Below, one piece after another: positions 7,741 through 11,918 of a DNA stretch of 12,136 nt (its first letter is position 1; the number at the start of each line of letters is the position of its first letter). A program made the translations under genes and the position numbers. The notes under the pieces are model-generated. The model was not told the origin of the DNA and searched no databases. It worked only from the letters and a program-made list of their open reading frames with translations. This DNA comes from a virus. Taxonomy: Duplodnaviria; Heunggongvirae; Uroviricota; Caudoviricetes. The stretch lies in IMG/VR virus record IMGVR_UViG_2711768053_000017, positions 1 through 12,136 of that record, one strand, 5' to 3'.

Positions 7741-10563
7741 ATGACGACAGAGTACATCAGGGACTGGCAACAACCACGCCACGCAGTAGGGCGTGAAGGT
7801 ACGGGGATCCCCGCACCTGAATCCGCGCTTTCCTCCTGGCTGGATGCCTACCGGGTAGAGAACGAGCGCCGCCAGGAAATGGCTGATGCGGCGTTCTCCG
7901 CCACGCCGCTGGGCAACCTGATTAATAAAAGCCTGGACGCACAGGAAAAACAGGACAAAACCATCACACTGGCAGGAGACGCCAGAAAACAGGCACGCGG
8001 CGCGCTGGATGAAGCCATGGCCTCGCTGCGCCTGCTGCCGTCCTATCTGCGCGATCCGCTTATTCGCCACCTCTCCTTCCTGCGCAAAAAACAGGAAGCC
8101 GATCGCCGGAAAGGCAAAAAGAGCTGGCAGGCGGAACGCTATGCACGCGGAACCCTGCGCAAAATATTCGAACGTCTGGATCGCACTGACGGACGCTGGC
8201 TGACACCGGGTTATCGCTCCCTTGCCGGACGCGAACGCCTGGACGATTTGCTGTACCTGCCGCAGCTCAACAAACACCAGATACAGACACTGGCCACCAT
8301 GACGGCGGCAATGTTCAGCAGCACCTTCGAGACACTCTGCGATGGCTTTGGCGCGACCGATGGTGAGCTGACCATGGAAGTGGCGCTGAAGACGTATCAG
8401 ATGCTGGCCCGAATGGCGTTACACCTGCACGCCATTCCGCCACATTATGACGCACTGACAACAGATAAAGACCGGAGGAACGAACCGGACACGGAGCTGC
8501 TGCCGGGCGCAATCCTTCGCCTGACCTGTGCGGAATGGTGGAAACGCAAACTGTGGCTGTTACGTTGCGAGTGGAGAGAAGAACAACTCCGCGCCGCCTG
8601 TCTGGTTTCCAGAAAAACATCACCCTATCTGAGCCAGGACGCGTTAAGCGAGTTTCGCGCACAGCGCGAGAAAACACGCGATTTTCTGAAAAGTTTCATG
8701 CTGGAAAACGAAGACGGGTTCACGATTGATCTCGAGACAGTGTATTACGCGGGAGTAAGTAACCCGGTTCACCGTAAGGCAGAAATGATGGCCACCATGA
8801 AGGGGCTGGAACTTCTGGCCGAAGCCCGTGGCGACAAAGCGGTGTTTCTGACTGTCACTACCCCTTCGAAGTACCACGCAACAACGGAGAACGGTCATCC
8901 GAACCCCAAATGGAACGGGGCCACCATGCGCGATTCCAGCGATTACCTGGTTAACACGTTTTTTAAGGCGGTCCGCAAAAAACTGAACCGCGACGGCCTG
9001 CGCTGGTATGGCATTCGCACGGTGGAGCCTCACCATGACGGCACCGTGCACTGGCACATGATGGTCTTTGCACATCCTGAAGAAATCGACAGCATCGTGG
9101 ACATCACCCGTGATATTGCCATTCGCGAAGACCGCCACGAGCTGGGCGATGACATAACTCCGCGTTTTAAGGCAGAGTACGTCGACGGTTCGAAAGGTAC
9201 GCCGACCAGCTACATCGCCACCTACATCGGAAAGAACCTGGACAGCCGCGCCGTGGATGGCATTGACCCGAAAACAGGCAAACCGCGCATCGACGACGAA
9301 TCAGGAAAGACGATGGCAGAAAGCGTGGAACGCGCCATCGGCTGGGCGCGCCTTCACCGGGTCCGCCAGTTCCAGTTCTTTGGCATCCCCTCCCGTCAGG
9401 TGTGGCGTGAACTGCGCCGCCTTGCCTGTCAGATGGCACGTAACCCACAGGGACCGCAACGTCTGGAAAATGACGCAATGGATGCGGTTCTTGCTGCCGC
9501 TGATGCCGGATGTTTTGCCACCTACATAGAGAAACAGGGCGGCGTGCTTGTTCCACGCAAAGACTACCTGATTCGCACCGCCTACGACCTCGCAGATGAG
9601 CTGAACGATTACGGCGAACAGAGCGTACAGATTTACGGGATCTGGTCACCACTCATCGGGGAATCCTCCCGTGTGTGCACGCATCCGGATAACTGGAAGC
9701 TGGTAAGACGCAAACCGGAAGCGGAAGACAGCGCCCGCGAAAATGGTTTTGACCTTCAGGGCGGCCCTGCCGCCCCTTGGACTCGTGGCAATAACTGTCC
9801 CCGTGTACAGGAAACGGACAACAACGGGACAGAACAGCCGGAAGAACGGCCAGCACCGTGGCCGCAGCTTCCTGACGGCGTTGATGTGGATGAATGGATG
9901 CGCTCACTGAAACGGCACGAACGCCGGGCGCTGATGCGTTCGCTTCGTGACAAACAGGCAAAAAACATCAGTGATGAAATGCAGAACTGGACACAGAGCC
10001 GCAAACAGCCACAGCCTTTGCCTGATAACCACGAGTTACTCGCTAAAGAATGGCGGGAGTCTGCTGAATCTCTCGGCCTGCATATCGGTGAACAGCAGAT
10101 GCAGCACCTGTTACGGGGCGGCAGTCTGTACGTTGACGGCAGCATCATTGCACCGCAGGGATTTGAAATTGTACGCAAACCGGATACCCGCCCGGACAGC
10201 CGAATCACGCAGCTCTGGCAACGCCTGAGCCGTAACCACGGCGTAAGCAGCACGGAGATCCGCCATAACCCGGTCGCCAGCTATCTGGAACAACTAGGGG
10301 CATCAGACCCCGAAGCCGCCGCACGCCTGGCATCCACACTTCAGCAGGACCAGAACACCATGAAAACCCCCGTTACCGTGCTTTCTGACATGCTGCGCGC
10401 CATCCGCGACGCAGAGCACGCACAGAGAATCAGTGAAACCACTGAACGCGCCCACCGCAAAGCAGACCTGCTGCGGGGTAGCCTGACCAGTGGAAACAAA
10501 AAACAGACAGAAACGGGATTCACAAATCCCGTAAATGAGCAAAAAACGTGCCATAAAACATGA
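7741..10563 (+). CDS. A: Rolling-circle replication initiator, P2 gpA family (HUH endonuclease), 940 aa
   Basis: HUH motif VEPHHDGTVHWHMMVF (H-W-H at 9049-9057) and twin catalytic tyrosines YIATYIGKN (Y codons at 9211 and 9223), as in P2 gpA (VEPHHDGTPHWHMM, YIAKYISKN). The start at 7741 has a weak SD and may be coupled to the upstream gene. Confidence 0.9.
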   Translation: MTTEYIRDWQQPRHAVGREGTGIPAPESALSSWLDAYRVENERRQEMADAAFSATPLGNLINKSLDAQEKQDKTITLAGDARKQARGALDEAMASLRLLPSYLRDPLIRHLSFLRKKQEADRRKGKKSWQAERYARGTLRKIFERLDRTDGRWLTPGYRSLAGRERLDDLLYLPQLNKHQIQTLATMTAAMFSSTFETLCDGFGATDGELTMEVALKTYQMLARMALHLHAIPPHYDALTTDKDRRNEPDTELLPGAILRLTCAEWWKRKLWLLRCEWREEQLRAACLVSRKTSPYLSQDALSEFRAQREKTRDFLKSFMLENEDGFTIDLETVYYAGVSNPVHRKAEMMATMKGLELLAEARGDKAVFLTVTTPSKYHATTENGHPNPKWNGATMRDSSDYLVNTFFKAVRKKLNRDGLRWYGIRTVEPHHDGTVHWHMMVFAHPEEIDSIVDITRDIAIREDRHELGDDITPRFKAEYVDGSKGTPTSYIATYIGKNLDSRAVDGIDPKTGKPRIDDESGKTMAESVERAIGWARLHRVRQFQFFGIPSRQVWRELRRLACQMARNPQGPQRLENDAMDAVLAAADAGCFATYIEKQGGVLVPRKDYLIRTAYDLADELNDYGEQSVQIYGIWSPLIGESSRVCTHPDNWKLVRRKPEAEDSARENGFDLQGGPAAPWTRGNNCPRVQETDNNGTEQPEERPAPWPQLPDGVDVDEWMRSLKRHERRALMRSLRDKQAKNISDEMQNWTQSRKQPQPLPDNHELLAKEWRESAESLGLHIGEQQMQHLLRGGSLYVDGSIIAPQGFEIVRKPDTRPDSRITQLWQRLSRNHGVSSTEIRHNPVASYLEQLGASDPEAAARLASTLQQDQNTMKTPVTVLSDMLRAIRDAEHAQRISETTERAHRKADLLRGSLTSGNKKQTETGFTNPVNEQKTCHKT
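10513..10532. promoter_or_regulatory. 20-bp palindrome ACGGGATT-CACA-AATCCCGT, copy 1, inside the last codons of gene A
   Basis: Perfect 8-bp inverted arms seen directly in the sequence; an identical-arm second copy lies 73 bp downstream. Confidence 0.5.
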
Positions 10564-10585
10564 AGTGCGCGCAAAACAGGCAAAA

Positions 10586-10605
10586 ACGGGATTTCAGAAT
10601 CCCGT
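10586..10605. promoter_or_regulatory. 20-bp palindrome ACGGGATT-TCAG-AATCCCGT, copy 2, 35 bp upstream of the parM-like start; candidate ParR operator / centromere-like site
   Basis: Identical 8-bp arms to copy 1 and similar flanks (aaACGGGATT....AATCCCGTaaa). Spacing of 73 bp is about 7 helical turns. A TAATTA -10-like hexamer (10613-10618) follows. Confidence 0.5.
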
Positions 10606-10639
10606 AAACGATTAATTAATCAACATAAGGAAAAGCGAC

Positions 10640-11599
10640 ATGAAAATTTGTATCGACGACGGCTCCACCAACATAAAGCTGGCATGGACTGAGAACGGCA
10701 AACGCCGCAACGCCATCAGCCCGAACAGCTTCAAGTCGGAATGGTCTGCGCCGTTCGGTGGCACGCAGCCCGCGAACTACATGCTTGATGGCGTGCGCTA
10801 TGGTTTTGATCCGGTCAGCGATCGCTTTGTCCAGACGACCGACACGCAATACCAGTACAGCGATGTGAATGTCATTGCCATTCATCATGCGCTGGTCAAA
10901 TCAGGCATCACGCCACAGGAGGTGGATGTGGTTGTCACCCTGCCACTGAGCGAGTATTTCGACACAAACGCACAGCCGGACATGGCCAACATCAACCGCA
11001 AAAAAGCGAACGTTATGCGCCCGGTGGAGTACCAGAACGGCGAGGCATTCACTATCCGTAACGTGCGGGTTATGCCTGAATCCATTCCGGCTGGCTTTAA
11101 AGCACTGGCTGACATGAGTCCGTTTGAATCCCTGCTGATTGTGGATTTGGGCGGAACCACGCTGGATGTGGCAAAGGTTCAGGGGCAACTGGCAGGTATC
11201 AGCCAGGTGTTTTGCGATCCACACGTAGGCGTTTCTCTGATGGCTGATGCCGTGCTGTCGGTGATGGCCACTAACGGTATGCGTACCAGTCACCACATCG
11301 CCAATACCATTATTGAGCACCGTCACGATGAAGCCTGGCTACGCCAGCACATTCACAATGACGCGCATTACAACAGCCTGATGGCGGTTATTCGTGAAAA
11401 GGAGGAGACACTGAAACAACGCGTGATCCGCGCGCTGGCGGGTTTTTCGGGTTACGGGCGGGTGATGGTTGTAGGTGGAGGAGCGGAGATTGTGGCACCC
11501 GCTATCCGCGAAGCCTGCGGAGTTAATGCGACTTTCATCGCGGACGGGGTGCCACAGTTTGCTCTGGTTAATGGGCTGTACGCAATGGATAAGGAGTAA
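10640..11599 (+). CDS. parM: ParM/StbA-family actin-like ATPase, 319 aa
   Basis: N-terminus MKICIDDGSTNIKLAW matches the ParM signature (R1 ParM MLVFIDDGSTNIKLQW). Further shared blocks: SPNSFK, YSDVNV..HHAL, TLPLSEYFD, NRKKAN, VMPESIPAGF, LLIVDLGGTTLDV, GVSL, VGGGAE, LVNGLY. Length matches ParM (about 320 aa). AAGGAAAAG SD upstream. Confidence 0.85.
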   Translation: MKICIDDGSTNIKLAWTENGKRRNAISPNSFKSEWSAPFGGTQPANYMLDGVRYGFDPVSDRFVQTTDTQYQYSDVNVIAIHHALVKSGITPQEVDVVVTLPLSEYFDTNAQPDMANINRKKANVMRPVEYQNGEAFTIRNVRVMPESIPAGFKALADMSPFESLLIVDLGGTTLDVAKVQGQLAGISQVFCDPHVGVSLMADAVLSVMATNGMRTSHHIANTIIEHRHDEAWLRQHIHNDAHYNSLMAVIREKEETLKQRVIRALAGFSGYGRVMVVGGGAEIVAPAIREACGVNATFIADGVPQFALVNGLYAMDKE

Positions 11600-11603
11600 A
11601 TCA

Positions 11604-11918
11604 ATGACGACACCAACCAGACGAATAAGTTTCTATCTGAAGCCCGCCGTCGTCAAGAGCGAACGGGAGGCGTGCAGTTACCTCGACAGCCTGCCAGCCT
11701 CCGAACGCAGCCGCGCACAACGCGCGGCTTTTCTGGCTGGACTGGCTCTTATAAAACGCGCCCCCGCGTTGGCGTATTCGCTGGCAGAATGGTCAGAAGA
11801 CGAAATACGAATGCCACCGCCACCAGTACAGCCTGAAAAACCGGCGCAACCAGCAGCAGACAGCGCCCCCCATATGCAGCAGGTGAAAAAGAATATTCAG
11901 GCGTTTTTCCCGAAGTGA
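11604..11918 (+). CDS. parR: ParR/StbB-like small DNA-binding protein (likely ribbon-helix-helix), 104 aa
   Basis: RRISFYLKPAVVKSEREACSYLDSLPASERSRAQRAAFLAGLALIKRAP parallels the R1 ParR N-terminus as recalled (RRTIAFKLNPDVNQTDKIVCDTLDSIPQGERSRLNRAALTAGLALYRQDP). AAGGAG SD 7 nt upstream, 4 nt after the parM stop. The ORF-track extension from 11475 overlaps parM in another frame and is rejected. Confidence 0.65.
   Translation: MTTPTRRISFYLKPAVVKSEREACSYLDSLPASERSRAQRAAFLAGLALIKRAPALAYSLAEWSEDEIRMPPPPVQPEKPAQPAADSAPHMQQVKKNIQAFFPK

Follow-up and report, generated by a model that had tools for sequence, protein, structure and literature searches.

The analyzed stretch of DNA (12,136 nt, referred to as the window) covers the early region of a P88-like (Xuanwuvirus, P2-like) E. 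coli prophage, in which gene A, parM, and parR follow each other in this order (Table 1). The gene A product is 32% identical to P2 gpA, and the 3' end of the gene overlaps the first of two short palindromes. The parM product matched the R1 ParM structures (E = 9e-93). The parR product was recognized by a profile match to pB171 ParR (2JD3) with E = 0.0019 over residues 7-73, i.e., the N-terminal domain, and was 44.8% identical to R1 ParR over residues 6-63 in tblastn. Its N-terminal β-strand, RRISFYLKP, suggests a ribbon-helix-helix (RHH) fold; the AlphaFold2 monomer model of the protein was of low confidence (pLDDT 59). The C-terminal tip, KKNIQAFFPK, aligned with KKNAMKLIN of R1 ParR. By homology, the neighboring genes are true members of the R1 family of ParM and ParR in the canonical order. 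The locus holds an actin-like ParM, a ParR with the C-terminal tip directly downstream of it, and repeats immediately upstream of parM, at the usual place of parC in type II loci, i.e., the composition of a ParMRC system.

Table 1. Genes, repeats, and leader elements of the locus, in window positions.
Feature	Positions	Strand	Remark
Gene A, P2-type replication endonuclease, 940 aa	7741-10563	+	Pfam Phage_GPA 2e-129
Proposed parC-like leader of the par cassette	10498-10639	+	Left cassette boundary 10498
Direct-repeat unit 1	10500-10538	+	Palindrome 1, A-rich left flank, AAAYGA right flank
Palindrome copy 1, ACGGGATTCACAAATCCCGT	10513-10532	.	ACGGGATT-CACA-AATCCCGT, exact match
Direct-repeat unit 2	10573-10611	+	Palindrome 2
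Palindrome copy 2, ACGGGATTTCAGAATCCCGT	10586-10605	.	ACGGGATT-TCAG-AATCCCGT, exact match
ATTAAT(T/C)AATCAA element	10611-10624	+	Between palindrome 2 and the ribosome-binding site
parM, actin-like partition ATPase, 319 aa	10640-11599	+	Pfam StbA_N 4e-82, ParM C-terminal domain 1.4e-68
parR, adaptor, 104 aa	11604-11918	+	PF10784 Plasmid_stab_B 1.2e-24

The palindrome, ACGGGATT-N4-AATCCCGT, occurs exactly twice in the window, and no further match was found there even at three mismatches. The arms are complementary at 8/8 positions around a 4-nt spacer, and the two copies start 73 bp apart. The count expected by chance was 0.05, and at least two copies were seen in 0/200 dinucleotide shuffles. 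An earlier note on this DNA had described two 20-bp palindromes with identical arms at this spacing, one in the last codons of gene A and the other just before the parM ATG, and both proved exact and so placed. Copy 1 is in frame within the last codons of gene A, which reads ETGFTNPVNEQKTCHKT up to the stop codon, and copy 2 is intergenic, with 34 nt from its end to the ATG. Each copy is comprised of two inverted iteron-like half-sites. Matching flanks had also been noted, and these were found, yet the similarity is longer than described, i.e., a 39-nt direct repeat of 82% identity which carries the palindromes at the 73-bp spacing. Deletions of 73 bp occur naturally and leave one hybrid palindrome (loci L057 and L285); they are products of recombination between the two 39-nt units.

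The region before parM had been called a promoter region; no σ70 consensus promoter matched in 10300-10640, and relaxed criteria gave one weak 7/12 match. None was found in the Hafnia and Plesiomonas homologues either. Because no σ70 consensus promoter was found, an operator role gains no support from this search. A weak promoter lead is the TAAAAT that arises from a TAAA spacer variant. The ATTAAT(T/C)AATCAA element is invariant or nearly so among 61 E. coli-clade sequences, and it is also kept in the Hafnia and Plesiomonas prophages. Possibly it serves as a -10-like or leader element, although it did not pass the σ70 consensus scans.

In locus L049, gene A is only 34% identical, and the part homologous to the window at the nucleotide level spans 10498-11749. 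From 10498 onward the nucleotide identity is 94%, both palindromes included, and copy 1 is intergenic in L049. A second such junction was found at about the same point in L273. On these alignments, the palindromes travel with the parMR cassette and are independent of the gene A allele. Neither the gene preceding the cassette in Plesiomonas (a gpA C-terminus) nor that in Hafnia (a 167-aa ORF) is related to the C-terminus of the window gene A, and the sites persist there. No homologue of the gene A C-terminus without parMR was found in the phage collection; the domain was present only in P88-like phages with parM.

The prophage segment was found in 1304 of 5426 complete E. coli genomes (about a quarter), and a 36-nt unit in 878 of the 5426, at one to three places each. 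The palindromes number one to three per E. coli genome and occur only in genomes with a P88-like prophage. Nearly all copies belong to chromosomal prophages, i.e., 1441 chromosomal places versus two plasmid places. Phage P88 (35.8 kb) has these two copies only. Among viral contigs, 120 stretches carried the core motif; 80 of these belonged to P88-type parM loci, in full or as fragments at contig ends, and the remaining 40 were single scattered matches. The genome-wide search which the earlier note had proposed as a check thus found a prophage-linked motif that is not frequent throughout host genomes. A generic genomic repeat was rejected as a candidate, since the motif is confined to the P88-type locus in E. 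coli and viral contigs. One P88-like genome was deposited whole, as a circular replicon of 34.5 kb.

In 133 related loci (80 distinct upstream sequences), perfect palindromes were the commonest state. Arms of 8/8 were counted in 37/80 distinct sequences for copy 1 and in 36/80 for copy 2. The rest had mostly one or two arm mismatches, and P88 itself has two in copy 1; four of the copy-1 entries are register-shifted by 1-bp indels, and three are from loci without copy 1. Copy 2 has TCAG or TAAA as its spacer and arms that are for the most part kept; its right arm is AATCCTGT in about a quarter of the distinct E. coli-clade sequences. Within the E. coli clade, nucleotide diversity was 0.04-0.07 in the arms versus 0.02-0.075 in the flanks, so the arms were no lower. 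This check, made on 80 IMG/VR and 68 metagenome loci, is uninformative because the whole cassette is young and about 93-95% identical. ParM is 98-99% identical, a strong constraint. The ParR β-strand RRISFYLKP was invariant in 24/24 aligned homologues, down to 47% identity, which makes it impossible to follow covariation of ParR and site within the ParR family. A profile search of genome contigs with the ParR alignment gave three loci only.

More divergent cassettes were found in P2-like prophages of Hafnia and Plesiomonas, in which ParM is 62-63% identical and the upstream DNA only 49-54% identical. In the E. coli, Hafnia, and Plesiomonas prophages alike, GGG-N10-CCC occurs twice, 72-73 bp apart, at -125/-112 and -52/-39 from the parM ATG (±7 nt), with the GGG and CCC cores 13 bp apart within each palindrome. 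In this comparison of three clades only, 12/12 core positions were invariant versus 54/156 positions overall (hypergeometric P = 1.2e-6), together with 4/12 inner-arm and 0/8 spacer positions. The hairpin energy, about -10.5 kcal/mol in E. coli, is only -4 to -5 kcal/mol in the Hafnia and Plesiomonas prophages. The maintenance of the cores and the geometry while the hairpin weakens points to a protein site at the DNA level, not to an RNA hairpin or terminator. The ParR β-strand is TRR(I/V)SFYL(K/N)P in these three clades, whereas in a Serratia/Enterobacter prophage clade it is NRKISFYLKP and the site is built to another layout. As β-strand and layout differ together between clades, this was counted as a match between ParR and site design. 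In IMG/VR, the ParR proteins of Hafnia and Plesiomonas had no close relatives, and the metagenome scan gave E. coli-clade loci only.

The palindromes are best explained as ParR-binding sites of a prophage type II (ParMRC) cassette, i.e., a parC-like centromere and probably also an operator. The earlier note had proposed such a site, possibly for the adjacent ParR-like protein, and we put the probability of this reading at roughly 60%, on comparative support. Each 20-bp palindrome would present two inverted half-sites, AATCCCGT, with the core CCC. One RHH ParR dimer would insert its β-ribbon at each half-site, so that a dimer of dimers would sit on each palindrome; this is modelled on the Arc and Mnt operators (roughly 21 bp) and on the 20-bp repeats of pSK41 ParR. 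The distance of 73 bp is about seven helical turns and would place both palindromes on one face of the helix. The intervening A-tract-rich DNA could bend or loop, like the split parC of R1. The C-terminal tips of ParR would then be clustered and could capture the growing ends of ParM filaments. Because copy 2 ends shortly before parM, its occupancy would probably also damp parMR expression.

Four half-sites are visible, versus ten iterons in R1. With about 12 dimers per ParR helical turn in the literature, a complete ParR ring may not form on four. The natural variants with a single palindrome were also counted against a two-site centromere. A more specific version, in which integrating P2-like phages of Enterobacterales use a minimal palindromic two-site centromere and ParMR works on the circular phage genome after excision or during replication, is proposed only tentatively.

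It was also considered that ParR binds the sites as a transcriptional operator only, the cassette having lost segregation and ParMR having been repurposed. The literature describes ParMR systems encoded on chromosomes whose roles are different or not known, e.g., ParMR/CorMR, and this reading fits the four half-sites and the great excess of chromosomal over plasmid places. However, no promoter consensus overlapping the sites was found, the ParM-binding tip of ParR and the ParM sequence are conserved, and a P88-like genome is on deposit in circular form. We regard an operator alone as unlikely.

The palindromes could instead act as RNA hairpins, either intrinsic terminators of minus-strand (antisense) transcription that runs into gene A or plus-strand stem-loops that process or stabilize the gene A-parM transcript. 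The 8-bp hairpin potential pointed out by the earlier note is real on either strand, at -10 to -11 kcal/mol with z-scores of -2 to -4.8. The form of a Rho-independent terminator, i.e., a stem-loop and a U-run, is seen on the minus strand only, where in both copies the 8-bp stem is followed by TTTTTGCCTG or TTCTGTCTGT. On the plus strand, neither hairpin is followed by a U-run, and no downstream minus-strand gene lies within the window. The terminator-like sites were not maintained in the Hafnia and Plesiomonas homologues, where the stems are reduced to 3-4 G-C pairs with 10-nt loops and only the GGG/CCC cores are fixed. Compensatory double changes were seen in 0/80 distinct E. coli-clade sequences, the common single changes break pairing on either strand in no consistent direction, and Rfam gave no match at E up to 1. 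A hairpin function is rather improbable.

About as improbable is that the repeats are functionless, i.e., a young tandem-like duplication of the 39-nt unit that rides on a recently spread cassette. The equal diversity of arms and flanks in the E. coli clade, the commonness of degenerate arms, and the persistence of the one-copy deletion variants agree with it. The comparison among genera does not: at about 50% upstream identity there are still two copies set 72-73 bp apart, their cores are still separated by 13 bp, and the position relative to the ATG is kept, with all 12 core bases invariant. Such maintained geometry is not expected of a neutral duplication.

It is very improbable that the palindromes serve gene A and replication (as a rolling-circle origin, a secondary gpA site, or a lagging-strand hairpin) or bind C, Cox, or Ogr: copy 1 is inside gene A, as is the P2 origin, and hairpins are common at rolling-circle origins, but the homologue of the P2 nick site is placed about 740 bp upstream, where the protein alignment puts the corresponding residues, the same palindromes accompany the very different gpA of L049, and they are unlike the TGT-N12-ACA dyad of P2 late promoters. 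As a P2-type origin, the palindromes were rejected, having no similarity to P2 ori (GCGCCTCGG/AGTCCTGTCAA); the ori-like sequence is at about 9768-9797.

Should the palindromes be ParR sites, they would be a compact parC design of two blocks seven helical turns apart, which bears on the number of ParR dimers required for capping a ParM filament. An R1-family ParR would then work from four inverted half-sites, with no need of a ten-iteron array. The sites would also offer a direct way to ask what use an actin-like segregation machine is to an integrating P2-like phage. In the tentative version above, the segregated DNA would be the excised or replicating phage genome, which would give the phage either a stable episomal, phage-plasmid-like state or an actin-driven positioning of replicating DNA, comparable to AlpAC of prophage CGP3. 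The sites may moreover predict incompatibility among co-resident P88-like prophages, or with plasmids sharing the site. If the reading is wrong, they are an ordinary pair of hairpins. In the literature searched, no paper describing the partition cassette of P88-type prophages or its centromere was found; a survey states that P88 has partition genes and may exist both episomal and integrated (PMC7969092).

The closest known system is parC-ParR-ParM of plasmids R1/R100 (Dam & Gerdes 1994; Hoischen 2008, PMC2241845), with the same gene order and the cis site directly upstream. R1 and the window also share a cis site of two blocks and an A/C-rich upper strand with A-tracts, and CATAAGGA is common to the leaders at the ribosome-binding site. 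The half-site plus flank, AATCCCGTAAA, agrees with the R1 parC iteron, AAACCCATAAA, whose type has the core A-A-(A/C)-C-C-C-A, at 9/11 positions, a suggestive likeness in a very short motif. In R1, five 11-bp direct repeats stand on either side of a 39-bp promoter core, the two sets being about 94 bp apart, whereas the window has two 20-bp palindromes and no ten-iteron direct array. Between the palindromes lie the gene A stop codon and no consensus promoter, and the host replicon is an integrating P2-like phage instead of a plasmid. A design distinct from R1 parC, as the note had anticipated, was thus borne out, and the other PF10784 systems examined use two clusters of 11-bp direct iterons. 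Such direct arrays were found in R1-type loci and in an Enterobacter plasmid (L212), and in a different form in phage D6. In the window, AAAC/AAAT tracts are spaced roughly 10-11 bp apart; the spacing is irregular, and the phasing was not relied on.

Other systems are alike in geometry or in setting. The 20-bp unit of pSK41 parC is bound by two RHH ParR dimers, and in the account of Schumacher 2007 given by PMC5016525 the units are four contiguous direct repeats of 10-bp half-repeats and not two separated palindromes; pSK41 ParR has no detectable sequence similarity to the window ParR. Arc and Mnt of phage P22 bind palindromic operators of about 21 bp as RHH dimers of dimers, a likeness of binding geometry taken from the literature. 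The RHH dimer is pseudo-symmetric, and for this reason ω and ParG, of type Ib centromeres, accept both direct and inverted repeats (PMC5016525). However, Arc/Mnt and ParG/ω are other protein families, whose partners are ParA-type ATPases or none. The AlpA-AlpC-alpS system of Corynebacterium prophage CGP3 has a prophage-encoded actin-like filament, a DNA-binding adaptor, and specific sites, and is reported to help in transporting and replicating the viral DNA (PMC4446434, PMC5539076). CGP3 differs from the P88-like prophage in host phylum and phage type, and the likeness is one of general description.

The parMR cassettes of the Serratia/Enterobacter P2-like prophages (L217, L218, L220, and L222) occupy the same slot, i.e., after gene A and before the portal gene, and encode the same ParM and ParR families. 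They share the left half-site, AAAAACGGGAAC, and a 17-nt stretch, AACAGGCAAAAACGGGA, is the same as in the window. The two 20-bp palindromes are replaced there by a single large, imperfect inverted repeat, GGGAAC..ATAGAAAAAT-N26-28-ATTTTTCT, and an outer GTTCCC arm matching GGGAAC is present in the Enterobacter loci only.

The window covers the early genes of a prophage that is P88-like (Xuanwuvirus, Peduoviridae, P2-like), i.e., integrase, C, cox, several small ORFs, gene A, parM and parR. The gene A product matched the Phage_GPA replication endonuclease (2e-129). In the parM product both Pfam domains of ParM were found (4e-82 and 1.4e-68), and R1 ParM structures matched it at 9e-93. The parR product, of 104 aa, was assigned to PF10784, i.e., Plasmid_stab_B, the R1/pB171 ParR family (1.2e-24), and a profile of 24 ParR homologues matched the N-terminal domain of pB171 ParR (2JD3) at E = 0.0019. 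The SPFH-domain gene, which phage records label 'serine protease' or 'lipoprotein', is a mobile module inside the early region, with 90-92% nucleotide identity to Stx-converting phages and many ~90-kb E. coli plasmids.

Positions of the features in the window
Feature	Position	Strand	Remark
SPFH-domain gene	5872-6696		
Gene A	7741-10563	+	ends ...ETGFTNPVNEQKTCHKT*, with copy 1 in frame there
P2 nick-site homologue	~9768-9797		GCCGCCCCTTGGACTCGTGGCAATAACTGT; P2 ori, GCCGCGCCTCGG/AGTCCTGTCAATAACTGT
39-nt direct repeat, first unit	10500-10538		holds copy 1
Palindrome copy 1	10513-10532		ACGGGATT-N4-AATCCCGT
Last gene A codons	10549-10559		minority variant CGTGCCATAAAACA; majority, CGCGCCGCGATATA
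39-nt direct repeat, second unit	10573-10611		holds copy 2; 82% identity to first unit, 73 bp start to start
Palindrome copy 2	10586-10605		ACGGGATT-N4-AATCCCGT; intergenic, ends 34 nt upstream of parM ATG (10640)
parM	10640-11599	+	
parR	11604-11918	+	

The window scan confirmed what the earlier note had described, i.e., two palindromes with identical arms at a distance of 73 bp, one in the end of gene A and the other before parM. Both are perfect 8+8 inverted repeats with a 4-nt spacer. The expected count was 0.05, two or more copies occurred in 0/200 shuffles, and no further copy was found in the window even at up to three mismatches.

The palindromes are read here as a parC-like ParR site of a ParMRC cassette, with a probability of about 60%. 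Two ribbon-helix-helix (RHH) ParR dimers would occupy each palindrome, one on each half-site, as a dimer of dimers. Arc and Mnt operators are bound by an RHH dimer of dimers. ParR of pSK41 shows dimer-of-dimers binding on 20-bp repeats (PMC5016525). The distance between the palindromes, some seven helical turns, would put both on one face of the helix; they could be bridged by bending the A-tract-rich DNA that separates them, on the pattern of the U-shaped R1 ParR-parC complex. Clustered ParR tails would capture ParM filament ends, and the DNA acted on would be the phage genome, excised and circular; a complete P88-like genome is on record as a circular 34.5-kb 'plasmid'. P88 itself has been listed as a possible phage-plasmid (PMC7969092). 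In the searched literature, neither a centromere description nor a cassette study was found for P88-type parMR. The pair is a plausible candidate parC, with an unusual, palindromic design, in a prophage that is very common in E. coli.

The plasmid record (NZ_CP148288.1, 1-34461) belongs to a feline E. coli isolate and consists of a complete P88-like genome, entered as a circular 'plasmid' of 34,461 bp. Besides integrase and cox it has gene A, parMR and the structural genes, and it could be an episomal or excised phage form.

In ParR, the N-terminus (beta-strand RRISFYLKP) and the last nine residues are conserved, and a hypervariable linker (residues ~66-95) separates the DNA-binding domain from the C-terminal tip. 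The tip, KKNIQAFFPK, aligns with that of R1 ParR, KKNAMKLIN, the region to which ParM binding is attributed in the literature. ParM identity is 98-99% for most P88-like phages and 95% in a single record; ParR identity among them is 47-98%, with the divergence concentrated in the linker. The AlphaFold2 model of the ParR monomer had low confidence, which may be as expected if ParR folds only as a dimer, as other RHH proteins do.

The palindromes go with the par cassette and not with gene A. In L049, a related locus whose replication protein is 34% identical to the gene A product, nucleotide homology begins exactly at window position 10498, 2 bases ahead of the first repeat unit, and runs on at 94% identity over the two palindromes and parM into parR, of which it covers the 5' half. 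Copy 1 is intergenic there, and a second related locus, L273, has a similar junction. The palindromes might be a ParR operator only, with ParMR repurposed, which is considered unlikely. No sigma-70 consensus promoter was found in 10300-10640, nor in the regions homologous to it; therefore, the 'promoter region' label of the earlier note and the operator role stay assumptions. Transcription of parMR may simply be read-through of the early operon.

The most informative test of the sites is the comparison across genera. By way of ParM homologues with 54-63% identity, the comparison reached P2-like prophages in Plesiomonas (L214), Hafnia (L215), Serratia (L217 and L220) and Enterobacter (L218 and L222). 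In all six, parMR sits downstream of gene A and upstream of the portal gene. Because the slot is the same in four further genera, P2-like phages and ParMR form an old and widespread association. The cargo beside parMR varies among these loci, i.e., HicAB, KAP NTPase and methyltransferase.

The DNA upstream of parM in Hafnia and Plesiomonas is 49-54% identical to the window, and GGG-N10-CCC occurs twice in each, 73 bp apart in Hafnia (-128/-115 and -55/-42 from the parM ATG) and 72 bp apart in Plesiomonas (-131/-118 and -59/-46). These positions are at most 7 nt off those of the window (-125/-112 and -52/-39). In the three-way alignment, the outer GGG and CCC cores were invariant at 12/12 bases, against 54/156 positions overall (hypergeometric P = 1.2e-6), while the inner arms were invariant at 4/12 and the spacers at 0/8. 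The coding sequences overlapping the sites are mutually unrelated among the three clades.

An RNA hairpin or terminator is another reading, and both copies do resemble intrinsic terminators on the minus strand of the window. However, the hairpin energy falls from about -10.5 in the window to -4 to -5 kcal/mol in Hafnia and Plesiomonas, because the inner arms lost complementarity, and no terminator-like sites were detected in their homologous regions. This reading is rather improbable. With unrelated overlapping genes, fixed cores and weak hairpins, the conserved item is thus two inverted DNA cores at a set spacing, which is the mark of a symmetric DNA-binding protein and not of RNA structure. 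The ParR beta-strand TRR(I/V)SFYL(K/N)P is common to the E. coli, Hafnia and Plesiomonas clades. In the Serratia/Enterobacter clade the strand is NRKISFYLKP, and the loci have one long inverted repeat with a GGGAAC core instead of two palindromes; the matching GTTCCC arm was found only in the Enterobacter loci.

A non-functional duplication is similarly doubtful. Variation within the E. coli clade is nevertheless a weak side of the ParR-site reading. Among 133 E. coli-clade loci (80 distinct sequences), perfect palindromes were the commonest state. Arm diversity (0.04-0.07) was not below that of the flanks, as the entire cassette has diverged little in this clade, and no compensatory arm changes were found in the 80 sequences. 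About a quarter of them have AATCCTGT in copy 2, and copy 1 of P88 has two arm mismatches. Two loci, L057 (about 1960-2010) and L285 (upstream of parM), lost one copy via recombination between the 39-nt repeats; these natural 73-bp deletions leave one hybrid palindrome, and that of L057 also alters the gene A end. Degraded prophages have rearrangement junctions directly right (window 10605) or left (10579) of copy 2, i.e., L003 (NZ_CP085183.1, 5990-6040) and L063 (1940-1960), a hint that the borders of the repeats may be prone to recombination.

A replication function, or a site of another regulator, is very improbable, and the palindromes were rejected as the origin because the P2 nick-site homologue lies elsewhere, at the corresponding point of the gpA alignment. 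That stretch inside gene A is probably the P2-type origin, i.e., the gpA nick site.

In the R1-type loci compared, parC consists of direct iterons of 11 bp, e.g., AAACCCATAAA, in two sets that lie ~94 bp apart, whereas the window has four inverted half-sites in two palindromes. The contrast with R1 parC drawn in the earlier note thus held. The right arm and flank, AATCCCGTAAA, agrees with the R1 iteron at 9/11 positions of a short motif, and CATAAGGA at the ribosome-binding site is common to the window and R1 leaders. Two other PF10784 systems examined use clustered direct repeats, of 11 bp (iterons) in an Enterobacter plasmid and 16 nt in phage D6. The half-site therefore looks R1-like, but the architecture does not.

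The 261-nt stretch around the palindromes was present in 1304/5426 complete E. coli genomes, nearly always chromosomal. A 36-nt unit occurred in 878/5426, at 1-3 places each, so the palindrome is not the frequent, generic host repeat that the earlier note had considered. Scanning IMG/VR for CGGGATT-N4-AATCCCG gave at least 120 stretches; among the matches listed, 80 were parM loci of the P88 type, whole or as fragments at contig ends, and 40 were single, unrelated occurrences, plausibly chance for a 14-base pattern. P88 (35.8 kb) has no copies beyond the two palindromes. At 35080-35097 of P88, CGGGGGAGCAATCCCCCG lies directly downstream of a hok/gef-family gene and is probably its terminator hairpin, with no relation to the par sites.
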